A stretch of 63,480 bases of DNA, counting the filler, from Reclinomonas americana ATCC 50394 (taxonomy: Eukaryota), in assembly GCA_048213135.1 (NCBI GenBank). It is 9 parts of 9 records of this genome, joined end to end, with 100 filler letters (N's around TTAATTAATTAA, not from the genome) between each part and the next. Parts side by side here need not be neighbours in the genome. Positions count along the whole stretch, not along the records: positions 37,069 to 53,900 come from AFZH01019606.1; 8 more parts are not named here. One strand, 5' to 3'. Below are positions 4,726 through 54,059 of this stretch, piece after piece. Both the position numbers and the translations under genes were made by a program. The notes beneath the pieces were generated by a model. That model was not told the origin of the DNA and ran no database searches. It saw only the letters and a list, made by a program, of their open reading frames with translations. Within the stretch, counting starts at the first letter, position 1, and the number at the start of each line of letters is the position of its first letter.

Positions 4726-4831
4726 GTGGAAGTGGAGGAAAAATAAAAATAGGCCAATTTCGTCCGTTGAGCCGATTCGGATTCGCTGTGATTGATTCTC
4801 ATTACACGCAACCAAACCGCGTGAGCTTACT

Positions 4832-19932: not shown

Positions 19933-21786
19933 CGTCACCCACAAGCGACCGGCCTCCACCAGCGACCAGTTGTGCTCGATCGCTGGGTCGTAGCCCTCTT
20001 CGATGAGGTCGTCGTCTCGGCGCGGACTGCCGAATATGAAGCCGACGGACGCGGAGCCTTCCACGCTGCCGCTGTGGACGGCCGCGAAGGTAACACTGTT
20101 GTTCGTAGTGCTCCACAGCGCCCGCACGGTGAACGAGTACGACGGCGCACCAGCGTCGTGCAAGTGGAACTGAATCGTGTAGGTGCCGTCGCTGCGCATC
20201 GTCCAGTTGACCCAGCCGCCCAGTGCAGTTCCCGCCGGCGTCAGCACTTGCTCCTGGTGGGTGACTTCGCGCACGGGCGGAGCGCCACGTCCACGAATGA
20301 CCACAATGCCATCGGCTTCCGTCCAACCGAGCTGACCGTGCTGGAAGGAGCTGATGCGGCCGCGACGCTGGTTTGCTGGATTCGTCCAGTCGCTCTCGTC
20401 CGACACCGGGTATCCCAGCCAGCTCGTTTCCGAGCCCATCTGGTGCCACCGGTGGGCAATTACACCGTGGACCTCGTGGGCGCCAGTCTCCGGTGTCCAG
20501 TAGATGGCGCCGCCCTCAAAGTGAGTAAATGCACCATGATTGTCGGGGCACGGCAACGAGTCGGTGACAGGGTAACCGAGCAGGCCGCGTTCCCAGCCAA
20601 GCTGACCCCACTTATCGCCAATGAGGCCATGGATATCGTGGGCCCCGGTCTCCGGCGTCCAGTAGATGGCGCCCTTCTGGAAGGTGTTGAAGCGTCCACG
20701 GCCATCGGGAGCGGCCTTCTCATCCGAGGTCGGATAGCCGAGGAGGCCGGCCTCGCGGCGAAACTCGGTCCACTTGTCCAGAATCGCCCCTTGAACCACG
20801 TGAGCACCGATCTCCGGCGTCCAGTAGATGGCGCCCTTCTGGAAGATGCTGAAGCGGCCGTGGCCGTCGGGAGCGATGTTCTCATCGGAGGTCGGGTAGC
20901 CGAGCACACCGACCTCACGATGGAGCGCGGTCCACTTGTCCAGGATCGCTCCCTGCACTTCGTGAGCGCCAGTCACTGGTGTCCAGTAGATGGCGCCCTT
21001 TTGGAAGGTGCTGAAGCGGCCGTGGCCGTCGGGAGCAGCGTTCTCGTCCGAGGTCGGATAGCCGAGCGCGCCGACTTCACGGCGCAGCTCGGTCCACTTG
21101 TCAAGAATCCGCCCCTGTACCTCGTGAGCACCGGTCTCCGGGGTCCAGTAGATGGCGCCCTTCTGGAAGGTGCTGAAGCGACCGAAGCCGTCAGGCGCGA
21201 TGTTCTCATCCGAGGTCGGGTAGCCGAGCGCACCAGTTTCACGATGGAGCGCGGTCCACTTCTCGAGAATGGCTCCCTGCACCTCGTGAGCACCGGTCTC
21301 CGGGGTCCAGTAAATGGCGCCCTTCTGGAAGGTGCTGAAGCGGCCGTGGCCGTCGGGTGCGATGTTCTCATCGGAGGTCGGGTAGCCGAGCGCACCAGTT
21401 TCACGATGGAGCGCGGTCCACTTGTCCAGGATCGCTCCATGCACTTCATGCGCACCGGTCTCCTGCGTCCAGTAGATGGTGCCCTTCTGGAAGGTGCTGA
21501 AGCGGCCGTGGCCGTCAGGGGCAGCGGTCTCGTCCGAGGTCGGATAGCCGAGTATGCCGGCCTCTCGATGAAGAGCGGTCCACTTCTCGAGAATGGCTCC
21601 CTGCACCTCGTGAGCGCCGGTCTCCGGCGTCCAGTAGATGACTCCTCGCTCGAAGACGTTGAAGCGACCGTGGTGGTCTGCGGTGGCGGTCTCGTCAGTC
21701 GTTGCTTTGCCGAGAATACCAGCTTCGCCACCCAGCGACTGGTACTTGGCGAGGATGGCGCCTTGCACGATGTGTTGGCCAGACAT
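19933..21786 (-). CDS. LGFP-repeat protein (nine ~54-aa repeats) plus C-terminal domain; 3' end in gap
   Basis: Repeats of HEVQGAILDKW...LGYPTSDE...DGHGRFSTFQKGAIYWTPETGA; uninterrupted ORF. A candidate 82-nt GT-AG intron at 21788-21869 ends just before the ATG. Confidence 0.9.
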
Positions 21787-22031
21787 GCTATGTGCGAAAG
21801 AAGACGCGGGTGAGAAGATATAAAGGTATGAGCCGTGGTTTCTCTTGCAGAAACGCCAGCATTAGCCACCTCGACTTTCTCTCAGTGTTCACGTGATGTC
21901 TGAGTTTCTGGTGCTCACTCAAGATGGTGATNNNNNNNNNNNNNNNNNNNNNNNNNNNNNNNNNNNNNNNNNNNNTTAATTAATTAANNNNNNNNNNNNN
22001 NNNNNNNNNNNNNNNNNNNNNNNNNNNNNNN

Positions 22032-37068: not shown

Positions 37069-40051
37069 ATCTCCTGTTGGCTGTTGCTTACTGGCAGCAC
37101 AGGGAGTCAAGCGGTTGGCGAAAAGTGGTGCAACGATGCGGCCTTCAAGCTACCGCTCTCCCGTAAGGAACTTTTGGCGGTTTTGCGCTTGCGTGAACCA
37201 GGCTCTTGGACTTCCTTGCGTCTGGATGAGTGTCTCCATCACATGGATCGCTTCCTCGTGTATACTACGCAAAAGGTGTGTGTTTGTAGCGCGACGCCGC
37301 GGTACTTGTTCCACGGTAACTCACAGACAAAGGACAGACGGCAAGTGCGGAAGGCGTCGCGACACTGAGCGTTGTTCCACCACTGGCGGAGTGGCTTCGC
37401 GATCCGAAGAGTCACAAGTTCAACTGCAACCTGGAGGAGAGCGAGCGACGTTTGATGAACCAGACGATCGTCTCGGCTCTGTGGTTGCAATTTGCACAGC
37501 AGTGGCACGATTGCTGGCGAGCAAAGGGTCCTTCAGTTGCGTGACGAGATCCAGCTCTCCTGCCGGCCACTCGATGGCGCTCACCGCGAGGTCGTGCACA
37601 GACAAAGGAGGCGCTTGACGCCGTGGTCGCAGAGGCACGAGATGTGTACAGATTTGAGTACCAGTACATCGCACAACTGGACGTCCACATGCCGCGTGTG
37701 GAAAGCCAGGGCTCCGAAGTGTGCGAAACATGGCGCTCGTTGGTGCGTGGCTCGCGACGCAATCGAAGCTCGATCTGCAACTCACAAGTCGCACTTCCTG
37801 CAGGCACGCCTTCTCCTGGATATTTGGAAGCTGAAGAAGCCACATCGCCTGCACTGCAAAGAGGACTTGCTCAAAATCGTAGACGAGTATCAGCAGCTGT
37901 TGGTGCCTCTCGGATTGTACGCAAAGTACTGTGCGCTAGGTTCGAGAAGCATCCGAGTGGCTTGTTGATCATTATCTGTGTCTCACCGCCCGGTTCTCGA
38001 TCATACAGCTCCGGCAGACGATGTCAATGTCTGGCGCGATCAGTTCGACGAACTCCTCCTTTTGATGCAACCGTACTTATTCACGGTGGACCGCGAAGAG
38101 TTCCATGCGTTGCATAGCTTCCTTGAGCACTTCCCGCTTGTGGCCTCTTCGTTCGCCAAGTGGCAGCACCTGCCGGCAGACAACGCTCCGTTCATCCAAC
38201 TGTTGCACCTGGCTGGTCACGGGTTTCAGATGTGCGAGTCGCGAACCATGGGCTACACTCCGCTGCACTGGCTGTCACAGTCCGGCCAGAGTGCCATGGT
38301 GGAGCAGCTGCTGTCGTTGCAGCCGTCAGATACGGATCGAATTCGCTTGACGACTGCGCGATTGGGCGAAAGCGGCGACACCCCTCTGCATGTCGCCGCC
38401 GCCAAGTTGCGTCTTCCCACACTGTTTCGTCCACATACATTTGTTCTCACCGCGCCATCTTGTCAGTGGTCACGTGGATGTGGTGCGCAAGCTGGTCGAC
38501 TTCAAGGCGGACATGCACGATGCAAACTACGCTGGCAAACTGGCCAGCTGAGTGCCCACTTTCCTCGTAGATGCCAGACGTGCGTTCTTGGACTCACATT
38601 TATTGTTTGCTGCAGTCCACGTGGCCGCGCGACAGAACCACGTTCCGGTGGTCCAGTTCATGGTGGAGAGAGACCATTCGCTCCTGCTGGTGCCTGACGA
38701 CAAGAACCACAATGTGCTTGCCGTCGCCGTGATGTGGGGTGCGTGCACCTCTTGCAGCTGGTGAACTTTGACTGCTGCTGTTTTGCTGAAGCGCGAATGT
38801 TGTGCTCCTTTGGTCGCCGCTGCACAGGTCGCTTGGAGATGGTCAACATGCTGTACACCGTCTACGGACACGATGACTTCATGCATGCACTGAATCAACC
38901 GTGCGTGCAAGCCTTGCACTGCCATTTTGCGCAATGTGATTTCGTTTTTTCTCATGGCGTTTAGCAAACCAGTGACACGTACAACCGCAATGGATTTCAC
39001 GTATGTGTAAGCTGGGAGTCCGAAGGCAATCTGCAGACGGCGGAACGCCTCCTCCAAATTGCCCCCAGTCTGCTGTGGTCGCGAAGTCTGCAGGGCGGCG
39101 CGTCGCATTTCGACATTGCTTACGGACCGCAGCCGACGTATCCTATCGAGTGGGCCGCCAGTAGTTTCGTGAGCACAGCTGTTATTTGTGGTGGTGTGTG
39201 TTTTCGGCAGTGCGTTCCTCACCGACGTTGTTCGCCAGTGGGACACCCGCGCATGATGTTGTTCCTCCGCGAGGAGATGGAGCGAGAGCCGCATTGCGCA
39301 GAGTACCGCGCCGAGGTTACAGACTTGGAGCACTTGCTGATTGTTGCCAGCTGTCGCTGCAAAGCGCACTTCATGCAAGCCATGGTGGACAAGTTTGGCG
39401 AGCTGTGCGTGCGGGACGCCCGCGATACCGACGGGCACACACTTTTGCACTGGGCCGCCTCGGCTAGAGGCTCGGTGGAGCTGGCACAGTGGCTGTTGGA
39501 GAGACGCTACGAAGTGCCGCTTATCGAAGTGTTTGACAACAAAGGAGCCTCGGCGTTGCGTGTCATCGTCAACAACGCCCTCTGCTGTTGCTCACGTTGG
39601 TCACCAATGTTGCTCAGTGTGCACAAGGCCGCTGCCTCCGGCAACTATGCTGTCCTCAGCTTGTTCCTGACGAGTGATCTAGTACCTGAGTCGGTGCTCC
39701 GCTCAGTCACTCGCGACTGGAAGTACACGGTGCTGCACTCGGCCGTTTTTGTGTCGCGACGCAACACTGAGGTGTGCTGCTGCGAGTCCCGCGTGCGTTG
39801 TTTGATTCATGTGCGTGACGAACCCTATGCTTGCGCAGGCAATTGTTATTTTGCTGGCTATGCGATTCCCGGAGATGATGCAGGCTCGCGACCACAAAAA
39901 CCTCAAGCCTCTGGAGGTCGCTCGAAACAAGAAGCGCTTCGGGCCGAATAGTGCACTAGCTGCCGACATTGAGCGAATGTTGCGCGAGCGCGAAGCTGCT
40001 GCCGCTGCTGCTGCTGCCGCCGCCGCTGCTGTTTCCGGGGCGACCGAATGA
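37069..40051 (+). CDS. Ankyrin-repeat protein (5' end in gap)
   Basis: GYTPLHWLSQSG, GDTPLHVAAANGHVDVV, GHTLLHWAASARGSVELAQWLL, VHKAAASGNYAVL, YTVLHSAVF. Confidence 0.85.
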
Positions 40052-40087
40052 AATGAAAAAAGTACCACACATGTCTTTATCTATTAA

Positions 40088-43000
40088 TCATCTGGGGACG
40101 ATAGGGTTCATCTCTAGCTCTGTATCTGGCGGCGCCGTTGACGAAGCCTCATGGTCCGTCGAGTCCGACTGGCCGTCAAGCAGAGGCGTGGACAGTCCCG
40201 TTGACATAGACTTTGACAGCAACACGCCCGTCGGTTCCTGGTCGTCGGCAGTCGCAGCCACCGCGGCAGCCGCTGCACTGCGTCGGCGCTGAATCCGTCC
40301 CCTCACAATGTCGTAGATGCGACGGACGGTGTTCATCCACTTGAAGACGATCGGCAGTGCCACGATGAAGGAGCCGATGGAGAGAACGCAGAGGGCGGCG
40401 ATTCGCTGAAAGTCTGTCGAGAGACGATTCGAAAACAGCACTGCGATGATGGTCAACGTGACCAGGCCAACCGTCTGCAGCCCGCTCACGCGTGTTAGAG
40501 AGACAGAGATCACTGATCAACTGTCGTACTTGTAAGAACACGAAAAAAACGCAACCTCCAGTTTGTTGTTACGCGACAGAGCGTACGCTTGCAGGCGCAG
40601 GTGGATGGCGAGGAATGCCTGCACCGCACGTAACTTATCAACAAAACAAATACTACGTGAGTGGTGCAAACGATGGGCGGTACCATGCAAACGGCCCACA
40701 ACGCGACCGGGATGATATCCAACTGGCCACTGGCGGCGAGTGGGAACAGCACGCCAATGACGACGAGTCGACGGATGAGCTGGTATCCCTGATACCACAC
40801 GTATGGCTGCGTAGTCACATACACCGTAAGAGACAGACGATCAATCACGACAACGCTCGGCGAGATACTCACGCGGCGGTAAAAGTTGTAGAGCACGCCA
40901 AAGCGAAGGCGAGTCTGGCACACGCACACGGAGATCAGAGACAAGCAAACACATGGCAACTCTCCATTCCGACATCCCCCCGCAACTCGTTCATCCTCGA
41001 GTCGCTTGCTGCGGCGTAGCCAGAGGGTCCAGACGATAATCAGCACCGGAATTAGGAGAGCAATGACGAGGAAGGCTCCGAAGAGTGGTCTCAGCGACGC
41101 CCAACTGCGTGCGACGCGCGATGTGATTGCGGAGCGGAACGTGCGTGTACGAATGACAAAGAACGCAACTGCGCATCACAGCGCACACTTGGCACAAAGA
41201 GGAGTACTCGCTCGGAGCCAACTTGCGTGCACGTGAAAAACGTGACTGCTGTCTCCACGATGCCTTCGTACACGCCGATTCCGAGGACCACAGTCGACAC
41301 AATGTACCTGCGGCGGCAAGCACATTCGTCCTCAGAACCCACAAGTTTTCGTAAAAAAACGACCTGCATGCAAGTGCGCACCGATCGATGCTGGCCCGCC
41401 GATATACCCACGAAGCGAATGCGTGACCGCGAGGGGTCACTCTGGCATCACCCCACCAATTTCGCCGCAGCATCAACCAAGCGGAGAAGCGGTGCAAGCC
41501 GTACGTGAACCACAGGAAGAACACATACATGGCCGGCGACACCAACCGCATCCCAAGTTCACCCAGGCCGTCAACGTAGAAGGGGCACCGACCCTGGAAG
41601 AAGCGCGGAAACCAGTACTTGACAATGCGGCTCAGCGTCAACAGTGTCACACTCGGGTAGAAGAGAAGGGTGGCCGTCTGTTCACACACAGGATAAGCGG
41701 CAGCACAAACTGCCATGGTGGAGATGACACGATGCGAACCTGCAAGGTAAACAGGAACATTTCGGCAGCCGCCTCGCTGTACGCACGTGCACGAAATGTT
41801 TAAGATGACTTGGCAATAAGGTGGCCATGTCAGGGACCCCATTTTTTCTCTCTCTCTCACGCACCTGCCACCTCGGAACGCGGCAACGGTGAACACGGCA
41901 ATGCCCCACATCTGGCAAAGTGCGTGTGAGCAGCTGCTGCTCGTTGCTCTCTTTTCAACATTCGTACCTTAAGCAACAGCATGGCAATCTCGTACGCAGA
42001 TGGCGAAGTGCACTCCACGCACTCCGAGTTCCACTCGGCGTACCCGCTCTGCACAAGCACCACCTCAAATCAATCGCGATTCGAAAAAATGAGGTCAGGG
42101 CGCGCCACAATCCCTCGATACACAACAACGCAGGTGCCGCAGAGTGGAGTGTTGCTGTCACGGAAGCTGTCGGCGCGACAGTAATCAGCACCTGGTGCGT
42201 AAGGAGTGGCTCCGGCATCGCCCACGTCGCAGAAATCGTAGGGACACAGATAGGTGGTGATGGGAAGCGGTGGTGGTGCGTTGACGGCGAGCGGGAAAGC
42301 CCACCGCGTGCTGCTGACAGTCACGTCGGGTCCTCCGTAACATGTCATGCCGAGAGGGCACGGCTGATGCCAGTGCAGTGAGATGCGTTCGTTGATGAGC
42401 ACACGAAGAACGAAAGCAACTTTCGGCTTACAAACCTGACATGATTGCTGAGTGAGCGAGAACTCGCCACGAGGGCACGCCTGACAGCCGACACTGTCCA
42501 CGTATTCTTCTCCGATGGGACACGGGAGAATCCCCAAATTGAGAGTGGGTGGTGCCGTAGAAAACGCCGCATTGACACTCTGCACCGCGATGTTAAACGT
42601 GGAGCTCTGTCCCGCAGAAGGCGCAACCACGGGAAGTTGGAAGGTGGCCACGCCGTTGGTGGTGGCCTCTGTGATATGTGCCGACTGCATAATACAGAGA
42701 AAAACGAATGAAAAGAACAGCGAAGAAAGGCCCTCACACACACGCTCCAACGAGACCTGGTTGGTGCACGCCGGGCACGACACTTGCAACACCCACCCGT
42801 CCAGAGACGAAATCGGCGATCCAAACACATCGAGGACATGCACATCGACTGCGCGTGTCTCCGTCACCGAAGGTGGCATGGAGCCTTCGGACGACTGTTG
42901 GAGTGTGGCGGCGGCCGTGTACGGTGCTGCAGCCAGAGGTAATTCGTGAGCGCCGAGAATGCACACGCGTGCGTGTGTGTGTGTATGTGTGCGTGTACGC

Positions 43001-46000
43001 AACAGGTCGCAGTGTTGTTGCCGTACTGAGCCACATTGCCGCTGAACGATAGCCCCAGCAGCGTGGCCCAGTTCGGCGACAGGGCCTCCACGAAGCTGTG
43101 CATGACGTCGAGCGACGACGGATCACCCAGCGCGTTCCAGAAGAGCGCACCGCCACCACCGCCACCGACAAGGTCTCCAGCGCCCGTCAATACGGCAGAG
43201 TTGTTCACAAACTGTGACTGCTGCAATATCAAGCCCAGCGCCACCACATCGCCAGGTCCGACACTCCACTGCTCCGCATCAAGGGCGGTCATGTTCACAG
43301 AAATGGCGCCACCGCGAAGCGCGCTATTGCCAGTGAATGTGCATCCCATTACTGCAGCTTGCAAACTGGAGGAGAGAGACATGGCGCCGCCGTCACCCGC
43401 GAACGCAGTATTCCCAACAAAAGATGAGCCCTGCAACAGTAGTGACCCAGTCCCGGTTGCCATCAGTGCACCGCCCACATTCACGGCCGCGTTGGCGTTG
43501 AACTGCGAGCCGATGATGCGGACAGTCGACTGATTCTGCACGTATGCGGCAGCACCTGAGGCAGCCGAGTTGCTGCTCAGCTGGCTGTTGGTAACATTGA
43601 CAAATGCGGTTTCGGTGATCGACAATGCGCCACCAGCTTCGGCCGACGACAACTGCGCCGACGAGCCAGAAAGCTGGACAGCAGACGCGCCACCGGCATA
43701 CAGCATACCGCCCTGCAAGTCGGCCGAACCTTGCAAAAATGTGCTGCCGGTATCTGTGTTTGCGAGTACATCGTTTCTCAGCCGGTGCCAGTCATCATCT
43801 CACATGCATCAAACTGCGCTGTGTTGATTACCTGTCCACGTGCTGAGACCGGCCATGTACACGTGCCCGCCATTGGTGGACGCACTGTTGGAGAGCAAGC
43901 GACATCCGTTGCTGGAGATCTCGGCCAGTTGCTCGGCAAACACACCACCGCCGCCAAGCTGCAACGCCGACACGCACATCATGATGAGAAAGACAGAGAC
44001 AATCAAATGTCACCACCAAGACTGAACGCACCGTGGCCACATTACTCTGCAGCAGGCAGTCGGTGAGCGAAAGTTGCGCGGAACCGGTCACATATGTCGC
44101 GCCACCGTCGGCCTGACAAGAAATGAGCGCACAAGTAGCGTGTGCAAAAAAAGTGAGGCAAGGCGTACGCACCGACGTTGCGGTGTTGTTGACCAGCTGC
44201 ACGTGGGTGAATGAGGCGACGCTCAAGTCGGCCAAGAATAAGCCGCTGCCGAACTGCGCCCGATTGTTCTGCAGAATGGAGTCGCTGGCGACCACCGACG
44301 CGGACGAGGCAGAGAAAATCGCACCGCCGAATTCGCCGGCCTCGTTGTTCGACACCTGGGTGTTGGATGACAAGACGACTTGCGACGATGACGACGCGTG
44401 GATAGCGCCGCCATTCAGTGACGCGCGATTGTTCACCAACTGGCAGTTGGAAAACGTGATTGCGGAGTCGATAGCGATGAGGGAGACCGCGCCGCCAAGG
44501 ACTGCTGCACCGTTAGCCAGCAGTGTGTCTACAATTGTGGTATTCGTGGCCACCGACACGGCTGCAATGCCGCCGCCGCCGGTGCCGCCAACGGCTGTGT
44601 TGGACAGGATCCTGCAAGACAGGATGGAGCCACCACGACCAATGAGACCGATTCCACCACCGCCAGTTGTGGAAGTCACCGTACTGTGTGCAACAGTCAG
44701 TCGTACGAATCGACGCGAGCACGGGTGCGGGGAAAGAGCATGGCGAAACTTGGAGACGATTGAGGCCCATCTGAGCAGTGAATTGGTGCCGAGGAGGACC
44801 GCGCCACCGGCAGCAGGGCCAAGTGGACTCTGCACCACATTGTACATGAACGTGCTATTGTGGCACAAAGATTGTGTGTCGAGAAGGAGTGCTCCGCCTG
44901 CGCAGCGGTGGCCGAAGAAAGGTGAGCAGTCGGTCGCCCACACAAAGCACGCGCAAACACATTCGCCACCTCCATTGGAGTGGCCGGCGCTGATTGCCGT
45001 CGACGACAGCTGCAGCGAGTTGGACAGGAATGTGCATGCAGTAACTTTTGCTCCATTGTAGGCCAGCAACGCACCACCTGCACACATTCACGGATGCACG
45101 TTAGGTTTCACGAGATCTACAAAGCGGTTGCGCACGGCACACGTACCGCCATTGCTATCGCCGGAGATGAAGTGAGCAGTCGTGTTGACAGACACGCGTC
45201 CACCAACACCCGGATCAATGGCGATGTTGTAGAGGAAGGTACTGTTGGTGATGGTCGTCCCGCCCTCCGGCACAGTCATTCCGCCTGCGATTCGACGAAT
45301 GCCGTAAAGTGAGCGGGACGGCGAGCCAGACAGAGGATTGCCAATAGCGACTCACCACCACCGTTGTGATTAGAGCCACGAGAGTCAACGCTGTGCACAC
45401 ACAGAGAGAGAAAGAGATATGCCAGATGAAAAAACAAGAGAGCCAAATCAGAAAGACAAGGACAACAACACAACACACCGCGCAAAGTCTCCACCGGCAC
45501 CATCGCGGATGCTGTAATTGGTGGTGAACGTTGAGTTGACGATGAGAAGCAGGTGATTTGCATTCTCGTAGGCGAAAATGAGCGCGCCACCTGCGAGCGA
45601 GCGTCAAGTCACCGACGACGCAAGTTTACGAGAGAAGGATGACGCACCGCCGCCGTTGAAGCCGCCCAACGAGCTGCCGAACTGTTCCGCATAATCGCCT
45701 CCGCTGCCGTTGTCCATCGATGTGTTGTTGTAGAAGACGAGCGATGACAGAGTCTAAGCAGGACAATGAGAGATATTGCCAAACAGCTCCTGAGCGAAAC
45801 ACAGGTGCGTCTACCAAATTGGAGGCACCGGAGATGCCCAACAACAGCCCTCCGCCGCCGTTCCAGCTGCTGTTCGACTGCCCAAGCAAACTGTAATTGC
45901 CGCCACGGCCGTTCTGAGTGGCCCGGTTGTTGGCAAAATACAGATTTGACAGCGTCGTCTGCCACACCACACAAGTCAGTGGTGCGTACGATAAAGCAAA

Positions 46001-49000
46001 TATTGGCCCACAAAAAAAACTGTACCTCGTAGTTGGTGAGCAGCAGCATTGCACCACCGCCGTTCGAGTTTTGCGAGGCACTGGCTGTGTTGCCGACCTC
46101 TCGGAGTGCGCCAGATCCATTCCCGATGGCAGCGTTGTCGAGAAACGAGGTTCTCGTAATCGTCTATGCGAACCACGCAACAACTCAGCAAGTGATAGAC
46201 ATACTCTCGACACGCGTGCATTTCGCACTGACCAACGTGCCCTGCGACCTGTAAATTCGGTGGTGTAAGAAACAGAACGAGACGAGCGACTGCGATGCCG
46301 AAGAACGGAAAGACGCAACCCACGCATGTACATCCAGAGTGCGCCTGCAGAAGAAAACACAGTAAACAACAACAGTGAGCACGGCATCAACAGATTCCGA
46401 TCGTCGTTCAGCAAGACTTCTCACCGCCCCCCGTCTGTCCTGATTCGCTGTTGCCACCGAGTACGTTACCGTTGCCGCCGACTGAGCAGTAGATGACTGA
46501 ATTGTTGCGAAATGTGCAATCGTACACGGTCTGGCGATGCTGCACATGAGTACGAAAGGCGGGAAGGAGTGACACACACATACAAACCATATATCCGGTG
46601 GTCCCAGAGCCAACAAATGCCGCTCCCTGCAACGTCGTGAGATGCCGGATTGTTGTGTATGCTCACGCGCAGAAACAGAAGAAACAAACACAACTCCTCC
46701 GACACTGCCGTTGTTGGCAAATCCCGCGCCGTTGACGGTGTTGGTTCCGCCACGATTGTGCCATCGTACAATGTTGCCAATCCACGTGATGTTTGCCATG
46801 ATCTGCGTTGACGAAGGTGGAGAGTTACAAGAGCGGCACGCATGCAAGACTATTCGTTACCGTGGCACGGTCCACAGCACATACCAACGCAGACGACGAT
46901 GCCGTGTAAAAGTACAAGCCGCCACCGCCTGCCAACACACAGTCAGTAACACACAGTCTGACCAGTAGTGCGAACACACTCACTCACCTCCGTTGCCGGC
47001 TGACGCCGAACTGTCGGCATAATTGGCATTGCCGCCACTGGCACATGAATCGACGAGGTTGTTATTGATTGCCGAGTTGTACATGAACTGCAATGTGTGT
47101 GTGCGCGCGAAGTAGGTGAGATTTCTTATCTCTGGGGCACTCGTCCCCGACATACGCACGAGGCTGCCGCCAGTCTGGAAGTCGCAGTACAAAGCGCCGC
47201 CACCAACTCCAATGGCGTCCGACCCTCCGGTTCCTGAGTTATTGTTTCCACCATTGCCGCTCGTGGCCACGATATTTGCCGAGAACTCGGAGGCCGTAAC
47301 GTTCTGCGTCGAGTGCGCAGAAACTGAGGATGACAGAGAGAGAGAGGGACGGACATGCGGATACGGATCGTGACGCAGCGCACCATTTGGCTTGGGCCGT
47401 TTTGCGTGTAGAACAAAATGGCCCCACCGCCGACCGAGTCCGTGTCACTGTTGCCTCCCTGGAAGCAACCGCTGCCGCCGTTGGCGGCGTTCACCACCGA
47501 GTTGCCGAGAAACTGCGATGACTGCACATACTGTACAAGAGAGAGCGTCAATAGGCAGCCATGCAGCAGCCGTGATCATGCAAAGACTGGCCAACCATAC
47601 TTCCACCGGCGAGGCAGTAACCCATGAAAGCACCGCCTCCGGCTTCGGAACCCAGAGCGTTGCAGCTGCCGGCTTGAGAGTACGGACCACCGCAACTGCG
47701 CGTAGCCACGGTGTGAGTCGTGCAACCACTACCGTTAGCGAAGCATGGATGGCCACGACGCACGCGATGTTTTGCACAGTGTTTGACGAAAACAGGGAAT
47801 GCGTAACGTACTGCGCGTGGTTGGAGTGATCATCAGCAACCAAGCAAATATGCAAATGAGTATCACAAGATTAACACGCACGACCACTGTCGGTCCGTTG
47901 AACGACGTCAAATAGACTGCGCCGCCTGTGCGTCACACGATGTGTAATGTTTTTCAGCACTCAGCGCATGTATGTGCAGCACAGACGAGGGAAACAACAT
48001 ACCACCAAGTGCAGAGCCTTGCGAATCACTGGCTCCGTTGTTGGTGGAGCCACCATTCCCGTTGCCACTGGACTCGTTGGCAATGAATTCCGAGTCCGAA
48101 AACGTCTGCATGATTAAGCGGTGAACAACAGAGTAGAGCTCACACAGAGTGCACCTGTCAAACACGAACCAAAATGCCACCGTAATTCATGTTCAGGTAC
48201 ATGGCCCCTACGCGCATGACAGAGGAAAACACGCGATGAAAGCGTGCGCGCGCACAAATGCGCACATGTATATATACACACCTCCACCGCTGAGACCACC
48301 AGACGCGGTGACCATGCCTGTGAGCCCATTGAAGGAGCCAGCCGAGGCGTTTCCGTTGGCCTGGTTGCTACGAAATGACGACCCCGTAACCTGGATACAC
48401 GCACGCCTCTCGTTGGCAACGCAAAGCGCAGGCAGTACGCGCAAAAGCACCAACTCTGACCGTAATGTTGCATGGACCGTCGACACACGCAGCCCACAGT
48501 CCACCGCCGCCGGTGAAAGTGCTCGGGATGTACGGGACTTGACCGATCTGCTTGCCTCGATGCAATCAACACACCACTGCTCGGAGAATACCCAGAGGTA
48601 ACAGCAACGCAACGACATCGCCGTGTCCGTTGTTCTTCGATCCACCGATAGCTGTGCGAGACAAGGTGCACGGATGAACGCACGAACCGATGAGGAATGA
48701 AATTGGAGCCAGACGATCACCATTGTTGTTGGCAGCATTCCCCACAAAGGTGCAATTGGCAATCTGTGCCGATTACGTAAGCAAGAGGGATCATGAAACC
48801 AAATGCACATTCCACAGATACACACCGTCATGGCCGCAAGACCGTCGACCCACACACCACCTGATCGCAGTCATTGGAGACGAGTGAGTGTGGATAGCAG
48901 ACGCGTAGGATTGGCGGACACGCGCACACACCGCCACCGCATTGAGAGCCCGAGTTCCCGTCGCCTAGAATGTACGAGCCTCCACCACAATTGTTCGAGG

Positions 49001-50931
49001 CTGCGTTGCCACTGAATGTGGAGCCTGTCATCGTGAGCGTTCCGCCCATTGGGTCCGTGATGGATATGTACATCGCCTGCGGCACCGCACACCAGCATCA
49101 GAGCGCCATACCTTGCAACACGCACACATGATCAGCTCTCTGCAGTCACTCAACTCCTCCACCCGACAGCTGGCCACCAATGGCGGCCGCTCCAGTCACC
49201 GTACACATTTTGGTCTGTCCGATGCAGTTCATGCCGTTGGAGTTGCCGGTGGCGAGATTTTGCGTAAAGGTGGAATTGGTGATGGTGAGTGCCACACAAT
49301 CTTGGGAGAAAATGGCTCCGCCGCCATTGCTGGCACTCCCGATATTGGTGATTGCGGGAGCTGCAATGCCACAATTCACCGCCACGTTGTTTGCAAACGT
49401 CGACGAGGTCACCACTGTCGTGGTGATACCACCCGTGTACTGCCACGTGAAGATGTTGCGCCGCGAGTGAGCAACAAACAAGGAACCGAAAAAAAGAGCG
49501 CGTGCGAGTCAGCAAACCAGTGCTCCGCCACCGCTGGCATCGCCCGCCAGGTTGCGCACCAGGTTGCCGACAAATGTGGAGTTGGTCACTGCCAGAGTGA
49601 TGGAGCTGCGAATGAATACAGCGCCTGCCCGAGGGAACATCAATCGGTGAGCAGCTGCAGGAACGACAACATACGTGCGCGTGCACGCAGACTGACCTCC
49701 GCCGGTAAACATCTGCGTCTCGGTCCCGTTGCCGACGGCCGCGTTGTTTTGGAAGCGACACGAAGTGATGACCACGTTGCCGGAAAGGTACGGGTTTGGC
49801 AAGTACACGGCACCACCCGACGCACCAAGGCCCTGCAGCACAGAGAGAGAGAGAGAGAGAGACAGTCGTGAGGAGCAGAAGGTCACACTGCATCGCTGCT
49901 TCCGCCTCTCCCCACCGTGGCCGTGCAATTGGTAAACGTGCTCTGCGACAGGGTCACCATGGTGTAGTACGCCGGCACATGCAGTCCACCGCCACCGATA
50001 CCGTTGCTGGTGGACGAATGCGAAAACGAGCAACCCGACACCGTGAGCACCAAGGGGGCGATCGGCGCCGGCATCATTGGCACCGTGCCGATTGTTAGCG
50101 GACTCAAGGCGCCATTTGATCCGCTAAAGGTGCAATTGACTACTGACACCGTCAACGGCGTGGCCAGTGTTGCCAAGGGCAGCAACTGTACCTGCCCGCC
50201 GAGCACCGTCAGTCCCTGCATGGTGATCGAGCCCGTGGTGGTCGTGGCCGTCATTGCCAAGCCACTGGCCTGGATACTTGCGGACTCCGACACCGCCATC
50301 AGTTCGATGGTGGCCGCTGCACATCGACGACACCATCGTCAGCACCAGCAGAGGGAAGTGACAGCACACACACACACACATGCATGCGTGACACACCAGT
50401 GACCGCCAGCTGATAGTTGTCACTGGTCAAATCGTAGAGGCCGCTGGTGAACATGATGGAGAGGTTGGCCGTGGGACCTGCTGTTCCGCGACTCACACAC
50501 GCTGCATACGCCGAGCGGATATCACACGCCGAAGCCAGCGGTGTCGCCGACACACCGCAGGTGGCGGCATCAGTGGCGCCTCCGGGAGCCACATACACTA
50601 ATCCACGCACATGCACACACACACACTGTTGAGTTGCGAGTGTGCGCGCGTACGTGCACACATGCAACACACACGCACCAGTGCACTGCTGCTGAGCAAG
50701 TACGCCTCCCATGACGCACAGCAGTGCTGATAGAATGAGCAGGTCGCATTGCCTTCGACGCCACCGGCGGCGGCGACCATGCCGTTCTTCCGCCACCGCC
50801 TTCTGTGCGATTACGCAACAAACGTGGTCAGCACGCAAGGGTACACGCACATACACACACAGGCAAAGCAAGAAGAGGAGACCTGCGCATGCATCGGTGG
50901 TGAGCGGAGACGTGACAATCAAGTCCTGCAT
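40088..50931 (-). CDS. Giant surface protein: polymorphic-membrane-protein-like beta-helix repeats (GGA[IL]/FxxN), Cys-rich region, multi-TM C-terminus
   Basis: Many FxxN...GGA motifs (NNRASLNGGAIH, NNEAGEFGGAIF, GNTAFAGDGGAM), then CPIGEEY...CQACPRGEF, LCGTC..GYAEWNSECVEC, then several hydrophobic helices. The start is uncertain. Confidence 0.75.
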
Positions 50932-51040
50932 CGATGCGGACGTCAGTCGTCTCTTTCACCGTCGCGATGGCCACGAGTGCATCCCAGCAGCACGTTACGT
51001 GTGCTCTCTATCTCCCAGTCGATCTCCTCGCTAAACCCTG

Positions 51041-52916
51041 TTGTTCCTTCGTCCTCTTCAGACCTCTCCTCATGTGCGACTTCAATGGCAACAAGCCGAG
51101 TCTGTGGTGCTGTTGGCCTGGGCGCGCGCAATGCCTTTCTGTGAGGGTGAGGAGCAGTGTGACGAGCACGCTGTGCGCATGGCCGATGTGACCATTGTCG
51201 CGGGAACGGTTGGTTGGCGAGAGTGCTTCGGTGTGGAAGATGAATTGCTGAGAACACACAAGTACACACACAGGAGGGCACTGAGCTGCGAGCACACTCA
51301 CTGGTGCTGGTGATGCGCTCGCCCTACTTTGCTGCCATGCTGGCCAACGGCGATGGTTGGTGTCATCATTCTCATCCATGTTGTCTCTTTCTTACTCATC
51401 GACATGCCGACAGAGTGGTCCGAGGGTGCTCAACGGCGCATCGAGAAGCGCAATGTGGCGACGCCAGTGATGCGCCAAGTACTGCGCTTCCTGTACACGG
51501 GCGCGGTGGATTATGCCTTGTCGGAGGTGTTTGCGCTGATGGCGGCCTGTGATGAGATGCGAGTCACGGAATTGTGGGAGCACTTGCTTGGAGTTGTCTC
51601 GCAGCGCATTGGAGTCGACACGGCGGTGTCGTTCTTGGAGAATGTGGATATGCTGGGGCCAGAGTTTGATCGCATCCAGCGCGACAGTTTGCTCATTGTC
51701 AGCAATCAAACATGCGAAGTGCTGCTGACAGACGCTTTCCTGCGGTGCTCGGTCGCGACGCTGATGCGTCTGTTGCTGCTCGACGAACTCGATGCCGACG
51801 AGGTCGATTTGTGGAGAGCCTTGTTGGCCTGGGGATGGTGCGTGTGGTGCACGTCGCTGCGATGGAGAATCATTTTCCTCGTGACACTCAACCGCGCGTG
51901 TAGCACACAGTGTGGAGTGGCAGTGGGCAAGGAGGTGGCGGAGTGGAGTGAAACGGAGCGGTTGCGGATTGCCGAGGTGTGTGCGGAGCCGGCTACTGCC
52001 ATTCGCCTGTATCACTTGCCGCGAGAGTGGTGTGTTATGGATATGAGAGTTCCCTGTCGTGATGTTCCAAGCTAATGCTTTCCTCTCCTCCGCCATGCGT
52101 ACAGCGTGCGCGAGGTGAAGCTGAGTCGTATCTTCCCTCCGCAACGGTACCTTTGGTGGACGGACTACTTGGCCGCCCCCGACCTGTTCCACGACGAGGT
52201 TGTCCCTCCGCCTCGCCTTCGACCACCGGCACTGCAGCAGCCGGTGCGCCCACCTGCTGCTGCGGTTGAGTCCCTTAGGTGGAGTGATGAGCTGCGTGGC
52301 AATCTGTATCGCGTGTCGCCCGATGGAATGGAGGCCACATTCACGCACAACGCACATGCCTACATTGGCTGCGTGGCCACGACGCCGTTGCCGGCAGGTC
52401 CCAATGGTGTGTGCGAAATACGATGTCACGTGCCCGCTGGCGCTGCGCAGTACTTTATGCTGGGCTTTTACGACGGAGCAAAAGTCGGCGAGATGATGAA
52501 TGTGAACTCACCGCATGGAGCAGCGAGTGGGCTGTTCATGCTCTGGCACACATCGTTTCCGTCGCTCCAGATTGCGGTGCGTTGATGCACGCATATGTTA
52601 CATCTTTTTCTTCAATGGTCACTGACCGAGGTTCGACTGCAGAACGGTTCGGCGCTGTCGCTCGCGCGCAGCAGCCCGGTGACGTTTGTGATCGACCAGC
52701 GACAAAAGACGATTGTGGCGCAGAGCAGTGGCATGGCTGAGGTGAGGTGCACGTGGGGTTTCTTTTCCCGACAGCGATGACGATTGCTGATAGATTGGTT
52801 GACAGCGAATCGATGACCGAGTGCCGAACTGGGTGGTACCGGACGATGTGCGCCTGTGCTACCTGGGATACACGCCGCAGCTGGCCATCAGGCTTGAGTG
52901 TGTCCGAGTATCGTGA
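51041..52916 (+). CDS. BTB/POZ-BACK domain protein with beta-rich C-terminal domain
   Basis: ADVTIVAGT|EGTELRAHSLVLVMRSPYFAAML...VLRFLYTG, LDADEVDLWRALLAWG. The start is uncertain. Confidence 0.8.
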
Positions 52917-53160
52917 GTGCAGTGTGGTGCGCCACCTTGCATTTTTGCATGTGTGTGGCGGCGTGTCAGTGCCGCTGCACCGACGAGGGATCGACCCGCG
53001 CGCGCACTGTGGTGCGACAGTCTTTGTAGCGTGCTGCTGTGACACTAACCAGCAGGAGGATGCACGACACGCAGAGACTTTGTGGTTTCGCACGCGTGTT
53101 CATATAATAACAGTCGACAGGCTGTGCTTCGCCAACTGGGAAGTCGCTTGAGTTTTTTTT

Positions 53161-53877
53161 TTACGCTTCCGGTACAAAGGCAATGGCTGCCCGCAGGTCG
53201 GCCGCAAGCCCTGCCGTCTGGAAGTTCTTGAACTTGTACCTGCATGCATGAACCAATCGTGAGTGACGGGGTTATACGAGAGACGGCGTGGTGCATGCGG
53301 AGACGCACACTTTGCCGGTGCCAAAGTCGATTGTGGTGATGGCATTGTTCGTGGCGTCCGTGCCAATCTGCAGTCGGCACATGTCAGCGGTGCAGTGATC
53401 AGAAATGTGCGTGGTTGTGTCGCTCGCAACAGCAATCCTGCCAAAGTCCGCCAGGTTGATGTTGAACGAGTACTTGGGGTTGATTGGCGACTCATCCTCC
53501 GTCCTGTGTACACGTCACCACGTTAGTCACCGCTGTGCAGTGCATTGCAACAATATCGATCACTGACATGCATTTGCTCACCACGAGACACTCAGAACAT
53601 TGGGCGTGAGAGCGGCACGCTCCAGCCACACCCAGCGCGTCTGCCACTTCTGTGAATGTTTGAAGCATGAGTGTGATGCACGTGGTGGTTCAGGAGGTAG
53701 GCGCGTACGAACATTCTTCAACTTGCCACCGAGCTTCTCGACCTTGTCCTTGGAGAGCCAGGCCTTGCGCTTGTTGCCCAGCAGCACCGCGATGTTGCCC
53801 TGTCCAGCGCCCACAAAGTCTTCTTCCTCCTCATCCTCATCCTCGGCCCCCTCCTCCGTCTCAAAGAAGCCGAGGGC
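53161..53877 (-). CDS. C-terminal PH-like domain of a gene truncated by the gap
   Basis: Spliced KAWLSKDKVEKLGGKLKN|KWQTRWVWLER...LSVSW|TEDESPINPKYSFNINLADF...KVYKFKNFQTAGLAADLRAAIAFVPEA*. Confidence 0.55.
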
Positions 53878-54059
53878 TGCATGATGACGGAAAATGCATA
53901 NNNNNNNNNNNNNNNNNNNNNNNNNNNNNNNNNNNNNNNNNNNNTTAATTAATTAANNNNNNNNNNNNNNNNNNNNNNNNNNNNNNNNNNNNNNNNNNNN
54001 GAGAGAGAGAGAGAGAGAGAGAGAGTGAGACGAGTGAGAGGAGAGAGAGAGAGAGAGAG

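Follow-up and report, generated by a model that had tools for sequence, protein, structure and literature searches.

Recognition of a 5' splice site by U1 RNA in a register displaced by one base (+1) was described in human genes by Roca and Krainer in 2009, as recounted in the accessible text of Tan et al. 2016 (PMC4856993); in PMC6280755 and PMC9311317, as far as their available text goes, the shifted register is merely cited. Table 3 of Tan et al. also lists nine predicted human GC donors (four after curation) with an asymmetric loop including +2, and the same text holds that U6 need not follow the registers of U1. According to the available part of PMC11162779 the U6 register is treated as nearly rigid in published work, and a tandem donor of STAT3 is presented there in which U6 C42/A41 pairs one base off +5/+6, in the -1 register. 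U2-type GC-AG introns, in the accessible part of PMC3167603, account for about 1% of donors and carry a stronger remaining normal consensus. As to U1 itself, the accessible text of Roy and Bowser (bioRxiv 10.1101/2022.06.08.495308) reports co-evolved U1 5' arms in Entamoeba and Mastigamoeba balamuthi, and both a standard and a modified U1 in Physarum polycephalum. A literature search, whose coverage was short on subscription papers and supplements, returned no GTTGCG donor class, no shifted GC donor of the kind described below, no U1 tuned to the +1 register and no two U1 RNAs tied to two donor classes, and the two-U1 system presented here looks new.

The locus in question is a GC-AG intron in an ankyrin-repeat gene of Reclinomonas americana (Table 1; a slash marks the predicted cut here and below). 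It is like the U2-type GC-AG introns of PMC3167603 in its T to C change at +2, its AG end and its ordinary branch point; in the available account of that paper, however, known GC donors compensate in the normal register, whereas the strength of the donor at 38547 is confined to the +1 register. It had been stated in the preliminary description that GC donors usually keep a stronger remaining consensus, which agrees with the accessible part of PMC3167603, and that this one lacks it, and in the normal register indeed only 3 pairs to standard U1, worth 0 kcal/mol, are predicted. Both 38547 and its GT paralog fit the human shifted form CA/G-x-y-R-A-G-U on standard U1, with +2 facing C8. The GC donors with a +2 loop listed by Tan et al. 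use a register related to that of 38547, yet different, and human shifted sites, as far as that text describes them, are a small subset all read by standard U1, whereas here 26% of introns, with a +5 C consensus and a matching variant U1 gene, are concerned. On its own the site is a modest rarity, as a single GC-AG intron is ordinary; it is of use mainly for probing whether two U1 RNAs with different registers are employed in one cell. The reading preferred here, held at a probability of about 0.5, is that standard U1, pairing out of register, spares this GC site within a two-U1 system.

Table 1. Features of the ankyrin-repeat gene and of related shifted donors (positions in the window)
Feature	Position	Strand	Basis or remark
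GC-AG intron, 69 nt, phase 1, shifted donor class	38547..38615	+	gene model, frame, conservation
Donor region CA/GCTGAGTG	38545..38554	+	9 predicted pairs to standard U1, +1 register; +2 C (38548) unpaired
TGA in frame on read-through	38549..38551	+	sequence
Branch-point motif CTCAC, A = 38596	38593..38597	+	motif
Acceptor CTGCAG	38610..38615	+	sequence, gene model
Upstream exon, 80 nt, ankyrin repeat, last residues GKLA	38467..38546	+	gene model
Downstream exon, HVAARQNH...	38616..38738	+	gene model
Ankyrin-repeat gene, 12 exons, 684 aa, predicted	37243..40051	+	Pfam Ank, Ank_2; 5' end model-based
Shifted GT intron CAA/GTTGCGT, neighbour of the GC intron	38406..38466	+	gene model; same donor in paralog
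Shifted GT intron TCA/GTTGCGT, same ankyrin gene	37536..37601	+	gene model
Shifted GT intron GTA/GTTTCGT	39164..39238	+	gene model; paralog ACA/GTTGCGT
Shifted GT intron GGC/GTTGCGT	39555..39617	+	gene model; paralog TGC/GTTGAGT
Shifted GT intron CAA/GTTTCGCC, another, long multi-exon gene	44684..44749	-	C325 allele (23151, +) starts GC

The window, that is the whole analysed stretch of 63,480 nt, is composite: eight 100-nt linkers (N44, TTAATTAATTAA, N44), placed within 14947-61744, join unrelated contigs, and 37069-53900 represents contig C4139. One small contig of its own carries at 19933-21861 on the minus strand an intron-free frame of 643 codons with LGFP repeats (PF08310, E 8e-194) and a GC content of 64%, which stems from bacterial contamination or else was acquired by gene transfer.

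The assignment of 38547-38615 to the shifted class as a GC-AG intron, made in the preliminary description, agrees with the frame, the gene model, the second haplotype and a GT paralog. The intron starts with GCTGAGT after an exon ending in CTGGCCA and its 3' end is TGCTGCAG; its excision restores GKLA-I-HVAARQNH, and Pfam ankyrin matches flank it on either side. The branch-point A lies 19 nt before the intron end, which is the modal distance in this genome, and the U2-type branch point and GCAG end are like those of other introns of the genome. The motif of U12-type donors is RTATCCTT, and no such donor is present at 38547. Read-through reaches the TGA at once, as had been observed, and the remark that no suitable GT lies in phase also held when all GT/GC-AG pairs were listed. 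Only 38469 (GT) and 38487, 38535 and 38547 (all GC) keep the frame with the acceptor at 38615; use of this sole in-frame GT leaves a 2-nt exon and loses most of one ankyrin repeat, the GC at 38487 would remove 20 residues, and four further GTs are frame-compatible only via acceptors within the downstream exon. A CT donor one base 3' of 38547 was rejected from the sequence, as either the frame is broken or Ser replaces a conserved Ile.

Exactly this intron is called by the self-trained gene model. Its margin, 6.8 nats, ranks third among the 44 non-GT calls and is exceeded by those of one GC donor of the normal class and one GA decoy. When the genome was searched, a second haplotype of the gene (G000:C325) and a paralog (G000:C3391) came up. 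The haplotype has the identical GC donor; the two contigs do not differ over about 325 nt surrounding it and may therefore share assembly k-mers, so that their agreement weighs against a stray error, yet is not fully independent. The 684-codon gene is free of stops in the comparison of the haplotypes, and their differences downstream of the intron (11 synonymous, 1 replacement; upstream 1 and 3, respectively) argue for translation of, and purifying selection on, the part that follows it. In the paralog, which is identical at 355 of 650 aligned residues and, where the two genes align, has introns at 8 of the 11 predicted positions, KLAIH is conserved and the donor at the same phase-1 position is CCA/GTTGAGTAT, so that one shifted donor exists in a GT and a GC form. 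Contig C3391 seemingly holds two related ankyrin-type genes in tandem, which the model fused into one frame of 1470 residues.

It can be said that the intron is very probably real, as judged from these sequence comparisons, and it is the GC variant of the shifted donor class. It is improbable that the donor is not used as proposed, with the runner-up GC at 38535 taking its place, or with intron retention, C-to-U RNA editing or an assembly error accounting for the C. Such readings draw on the fact that the evidence for 38547 is from DNA only and that the haplotype contigs are identical near the site. The GC at 38535 does preserve the frame, but it costs four residues where KLA is conserved in the paralog and it scores 6.8 nats worse; retention would truncate a gene with purifying selection downstream, and nothing that was found points to editing.

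The gene model covers both strands and was trained on 675 kb of host DNA, comprising the window and nine contig pieces, with C325 and C479 held out as haplotypes and C1 and C2 left out because they were judged bacterial. The latter two are 2-Mb contigs with a GC content of 48% and no intron motifs, likely bacterial genomes within the assembly. The class statistics are model-based and the two-way split of donors is seeded, since the model was started from two consensus classes, their frequencies being re-estimated; at +2 its prior was 1% each for GC, GA and GG. After 126 allelic duplicates had been dropped, 2041 introns were predicted: 1479 with normal GT donors of the type G/GTGCGT, 519 with shifted GT donors of the type H/GTTGCGT, i.e. 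about one quarter (519/2041), and the rest non-GT. In the 519 shifted donors the consensus is A 45, T 27, C 20 and G 8% at -1, T 96% at +3, G 81% at +4, C 87% (A 7%) at +5, G 98% at +6 and T 80% at +7, while intron length, branch point and acceptor are similar in both classes. Among 80 allelic pairs of shifted donors there was 1 change at +2, none at +3 or +4, 3 at +5, 1 at +6 and 3 at +7, compared with 4-8 changes at each free position. The Prp8 region was checked against outside homologs, which span gap-free 8 of the 14 predicted introns listed, among them one with the shifted donor ACT/GTTGCGT at 98% identity; of the others one was gapped, two were uninformative and three had no match. Prp8 (C728:12500-29631, C4241, C4242) contains several intein-like insertions of the Hint/homing-endonuclease type, common to Prp8 of Coemansia and of unnamed sources, and its scaffold consists of gap-separated pieces whose order and strand are jumbled, an assembly fault in all probability.

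Two types of U1 gene were found. The search with RF00003 yielded three copies, one with the standard arm AUACUUACCUG (at least one copy, C343:5715-5887, adjoining an assembly gap) and two alleles with the variant arm AUACGUAACUU (C429:9347-9500 and C479:4310-4463), which differs from the standard arm by the three changes U5G, C8A and G11U. A pattern common to both types returned the same three copies and two non-U1 matches. Both types match RF00003 over its full length at E about 2e-14 (for the variant, model 1-166), and both the variant (64.0 bits) and the standard-arm copy (63.7) score below the Rfam gathering cut-off of 69.5. It possesses the stem-loops, the loop I and II motifs, helix H and an Sm-like site; helix H begins at position 12 in both RNAs, so the variant arm is no longer than the standard one. 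Its two alleles are identical over 154 nt, with 33 of 1040 aligned positions differing in the flanks, and from these sequences the variant is presumably expressed. The contigs of both U1 types show the host signature and shifted introns (C343 21/65, C429 21/79), and the origin of the standard U1 from a contaminant is ruled out, because C343 has the host signature. Searches for U5 (RF00020) and U1-C (PF06220) gave no match and are uninformative either way. The 40-nt 3' flank is alike in variant and standard genes (ctcct..tggat..gaa..cgaaga..), perhaps a 3'-end signal.

When U1 C9 is set on +1, the three changes of the variant face +5 C (G5), +2 U (A8) and -2 (U11), and C8A abolishes precisely the mismatch that shifted donors in humans have at +2. 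An altered U1 5' arm which suits an atypical donor is shared with Entamoeba and Mastigamoeba balamuthi, U5G (ACGU) being the very change reported for the latter, and the presence of two U1 types resembles Physarum. Nevertheless, as far as the available text of Roy and Bowser describes them, their U1 changes stay in the normal register, whereas the present variant is complementary in the +1 register only, and one U1 is described for Entamoeba and Mastigamoeba, whereas here the variant coexists with a standard U1.

Pairing was assessed by computed fixed-register energies in which pseudouridine and proteins are ignored. The best predicted partner of the shifted GT donors is the variant U1 in 503 of 519 cases, standard U1 in the shifted register in 7 and in the normal register in 9, and their median helix is -8.3 kcal/mol with the variant and 0 with the standard RNA. 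Normal donors have a median of -5.9 kcal/mol with standard U1, which is best in 1329 of 1479, the variant in the -1 register being best in 115; a single (variant) U1 reading both classes as the main route was rejected on this preference. It is very improbable that standard U1 reads the whole shifted class one base out, with +2 free and the variant silent or minor. The site at 38547 does fit such a scheme and the register is documented in humans (PMC4856993, in its accessible text), but a typical shifted donor, with the C found at +5 in 87%, for that reason forms no stable standard-U1 helix in the +1 register, shifted donors show no enrichment of GC, and each of the three changes in the variant, whose alleles are identical, matches the class.

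The donor at 38547 is predicted to behave otherwise. With standard U1 in the +1 register its helix amounts to -6.9 kcal/mol, +2 faces C8 as the sole unpaired position inside it, and the energy is equal with U or C at +2. With the variant U1 there are three mismatches and -1.4 kcal/mol, while the paralog donor pairs with both RNAs (-7.7 and -6.5 kcal/mol for the two). The claim that +2 is unpaired in the shifted register thus agrees with the prediction for 38547 on standard U1 and is not supported class-wide, since the variant U1, the best predicted partner there, pairs +2 U and +2 is therefore not free in the shifted class. Only 4 of 519 shifted GT donors pair with standard U1 as well as 38547 does, and the context CA/GT..A occurs in only 6 of 519. 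At most +5 A donors of the local set (25 of 35) the variant is still the best partner. C at -2 is found in 205 of 526 A/GTTRAGT sites genome-wide (39%) and in 46 of 122 +5 C donors (p=0.91, counts halved for haplotypes), and A at -2 (126/526) is likewise without excess, so that an influence of standard U1 on this subset is not demonstrated; +5 A could also aid donors via U6. A at -1 is commoner where +5 mismatches the variant U1 (39/53 vs 193/422, p=1e-4).

The further claim, that 38547 independently supports shifted pairing, is not supported. The catalytic core reads position +2 as well, so one C at this position tells little about U1 pairing. At margins of at least 3 nats the calls comprise 1 shifted GC donor (38547), 10 normal GC donors, 1 GA decoy and 1 GG decoy; the GC rate is 1/520 in the shifted class, the one being 38547 itself, which was ascertained, and 10/1489 in the normal class (Fisher p=0.31), and without it the shifted rate is 0/519 with an upper bound of 0.7%, all these rates being lower bounds because the 1% prior limits calls. 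The share among normal donors, 0.7% and nearly all AG/GC, compares with the approximately 1% given for known GC-AG introns in the accessible part of PMC3167603. All ten normal GC donors at that margin are AG/GC, as against AG in 581 of 1572 normal GT donors, and several (GCACGT, GCTCGT, GCATGT) pair better with the variant in the -1 register than with standard U1. The pattern A/GCTRAGT followed by a branch point and AG occurs in 46 rows genome-wide, compared with 526 for A/GTTRAGT; two of the 46 are alleles of 38547 and the others represent 32 loci, grouped by eye, of which none of the 21 checked is a donor, forcing them costing at least 5.8 nats. None of the 7 candidates checked in the CA/GCTRAGT context is a further donor, so GC stays at about 1% even in the CA context. 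A reversed-pattern control (98 vs 46) was not composition-matched and is not used as a rate.

The same independence is also undermined by a second shifted GC donor, CAA/GCTTCGCC, the C325 allele of the intron at 44684-44749, called with a margin of 7.5 nats. Read-through meets a stop, the alleles differ downstream by 16 synonymous changes and 1 replacement, and standard U1 forms no helix with it in either register; its predicted U1 helix is -0.8 kcal/mol in the fixed register and -3.4 as a free duplex, so C at +2 appears tolerable with almost no predicted U1 helix. A possible, somewhat doubtful alternative is therefore ordinary GC-AG tolerance within the variant-U1 class, in which the variant, or weak U1 binding helped by intron definition from the 3' end, would read 38547 despite C.A at +2, the short intron, the good branch point and the match of +5 A/+6 G/+7 U to U6 would compensate, and the fit to standard U1 would be incidental. 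This second allele at a variant-only site, the C found at -2 in 39% of A/GTTRAGT sites anyhow and the similar GC rates of both classes speak for tolerance. The weak variant helix at 38547 speaks against it, as does the stronger U1 pairing usual for GC donors elsewhere (PMC3167603, accessible part); moreover, of 274 local occurrences of H/GCTKCGT only one is called, doubtfully (margin 2.3, 522 nt), whereas 308 of 460 H/GTTKCGT are, and the C325 allele, which is heterozygous, may be deleterious or stem from an assembly error. At 38547 alone no other mechanism fits better than the shifted pairing of standard U1, for which the odds are about even, the pairing argument being drawn from a single site chosen post hoc.

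U6 adds a further question, namely how the cut is fixed in the quarter of introns where the G normally held by U6 is found at +6 instead of +5. A family search found three identical U6 copies with the standard ACAGAGA box, and a search for a variant U6, combining the family with a 15-nt pattern allowing one mismatch, returned those three copies and three non-U6 matches, a very divergent U6 being able to escape it. Pairing of U6 C42 is possible at +5 in 87% of normal donors; in shifted donors it is possible in 1% at +5 and in 98% at +6. By this account, provided that no divergent U6 escaped the search, the shifted class would either require U6 in a +1 register or make do with little pairing to it. 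In the STAT3 case, as the available text of PMC11162779 presents it, the register is -1 and one human site is concerned; the shifted class here would require +1 in a quarter of introns.

In the preferred reading 38547 would be an intron of the major spliceosome whose donor, formerly CCA/GTTGAGT, changed from T to C at +2, a direction suggested by one paralog. Two donor classes would be served by two U1 genes. Standard U1 would bind the normal G/GTGCGT-type donors, and the variant, keeping the frame of its body, would repair the mismatches of the +1 register through A8/+2 U, G5/+5 C and U11/-2 A and so read most shifted donors with +2 paired. The site would belong to the few +5 A donors in which CA precedes the cut, to which standard U1 also binds one base out, with +2, U or C, unpaired opposite C8. 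As the standard helix is indifferent to +2, the variant helix would have been lost through the mutation and the standard one kept, and on this proposal the site survived. U6, in a +1 register of its own, would most likely pair with +6 G and +7 U, the cut falling before G. Splicing at 38547, the choice of U1 and the U6 register are all inferred here. Slightly more tentatively, just short of an even chance, it is proposed that major-spliceosome introns are split between standard U1 and a natural "suppressor" U1, in which three changes make a full helix out of the +1 register, rare in humans, at one intron in four, with one unchanged U6 pairing one base farther; the GC site would then mark an overlap zone once readable by either U1, now dependent on standard U1 and a possible relic of the origin of the second class.

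Together with the paralogous GT donor and the two alleles, GT and GC, at 44749, the site at 38547 makes up a set in which one site fits standard U1 only, one both RNAs and one the variant only. On the practical side, gene finders without shifted and shifted-GC donors will give broken gene models in this genome. Among the other non-GT calls, a possible GA donor, TTG/GAGCGT, near 42685 on the minus strand is called in both haplotypes (margin in the window 0.1) and another, AAA/GAGAGT, lies at position 181047 of the C14 piece (margin 9.3); the GA calls may be model errors. The GG call, CCA/GGTGCGC at position 4783 of the C343 piece on the minus strand (margin 3.0), is within decoy noise, and its pattern is the one expected were +2 free.
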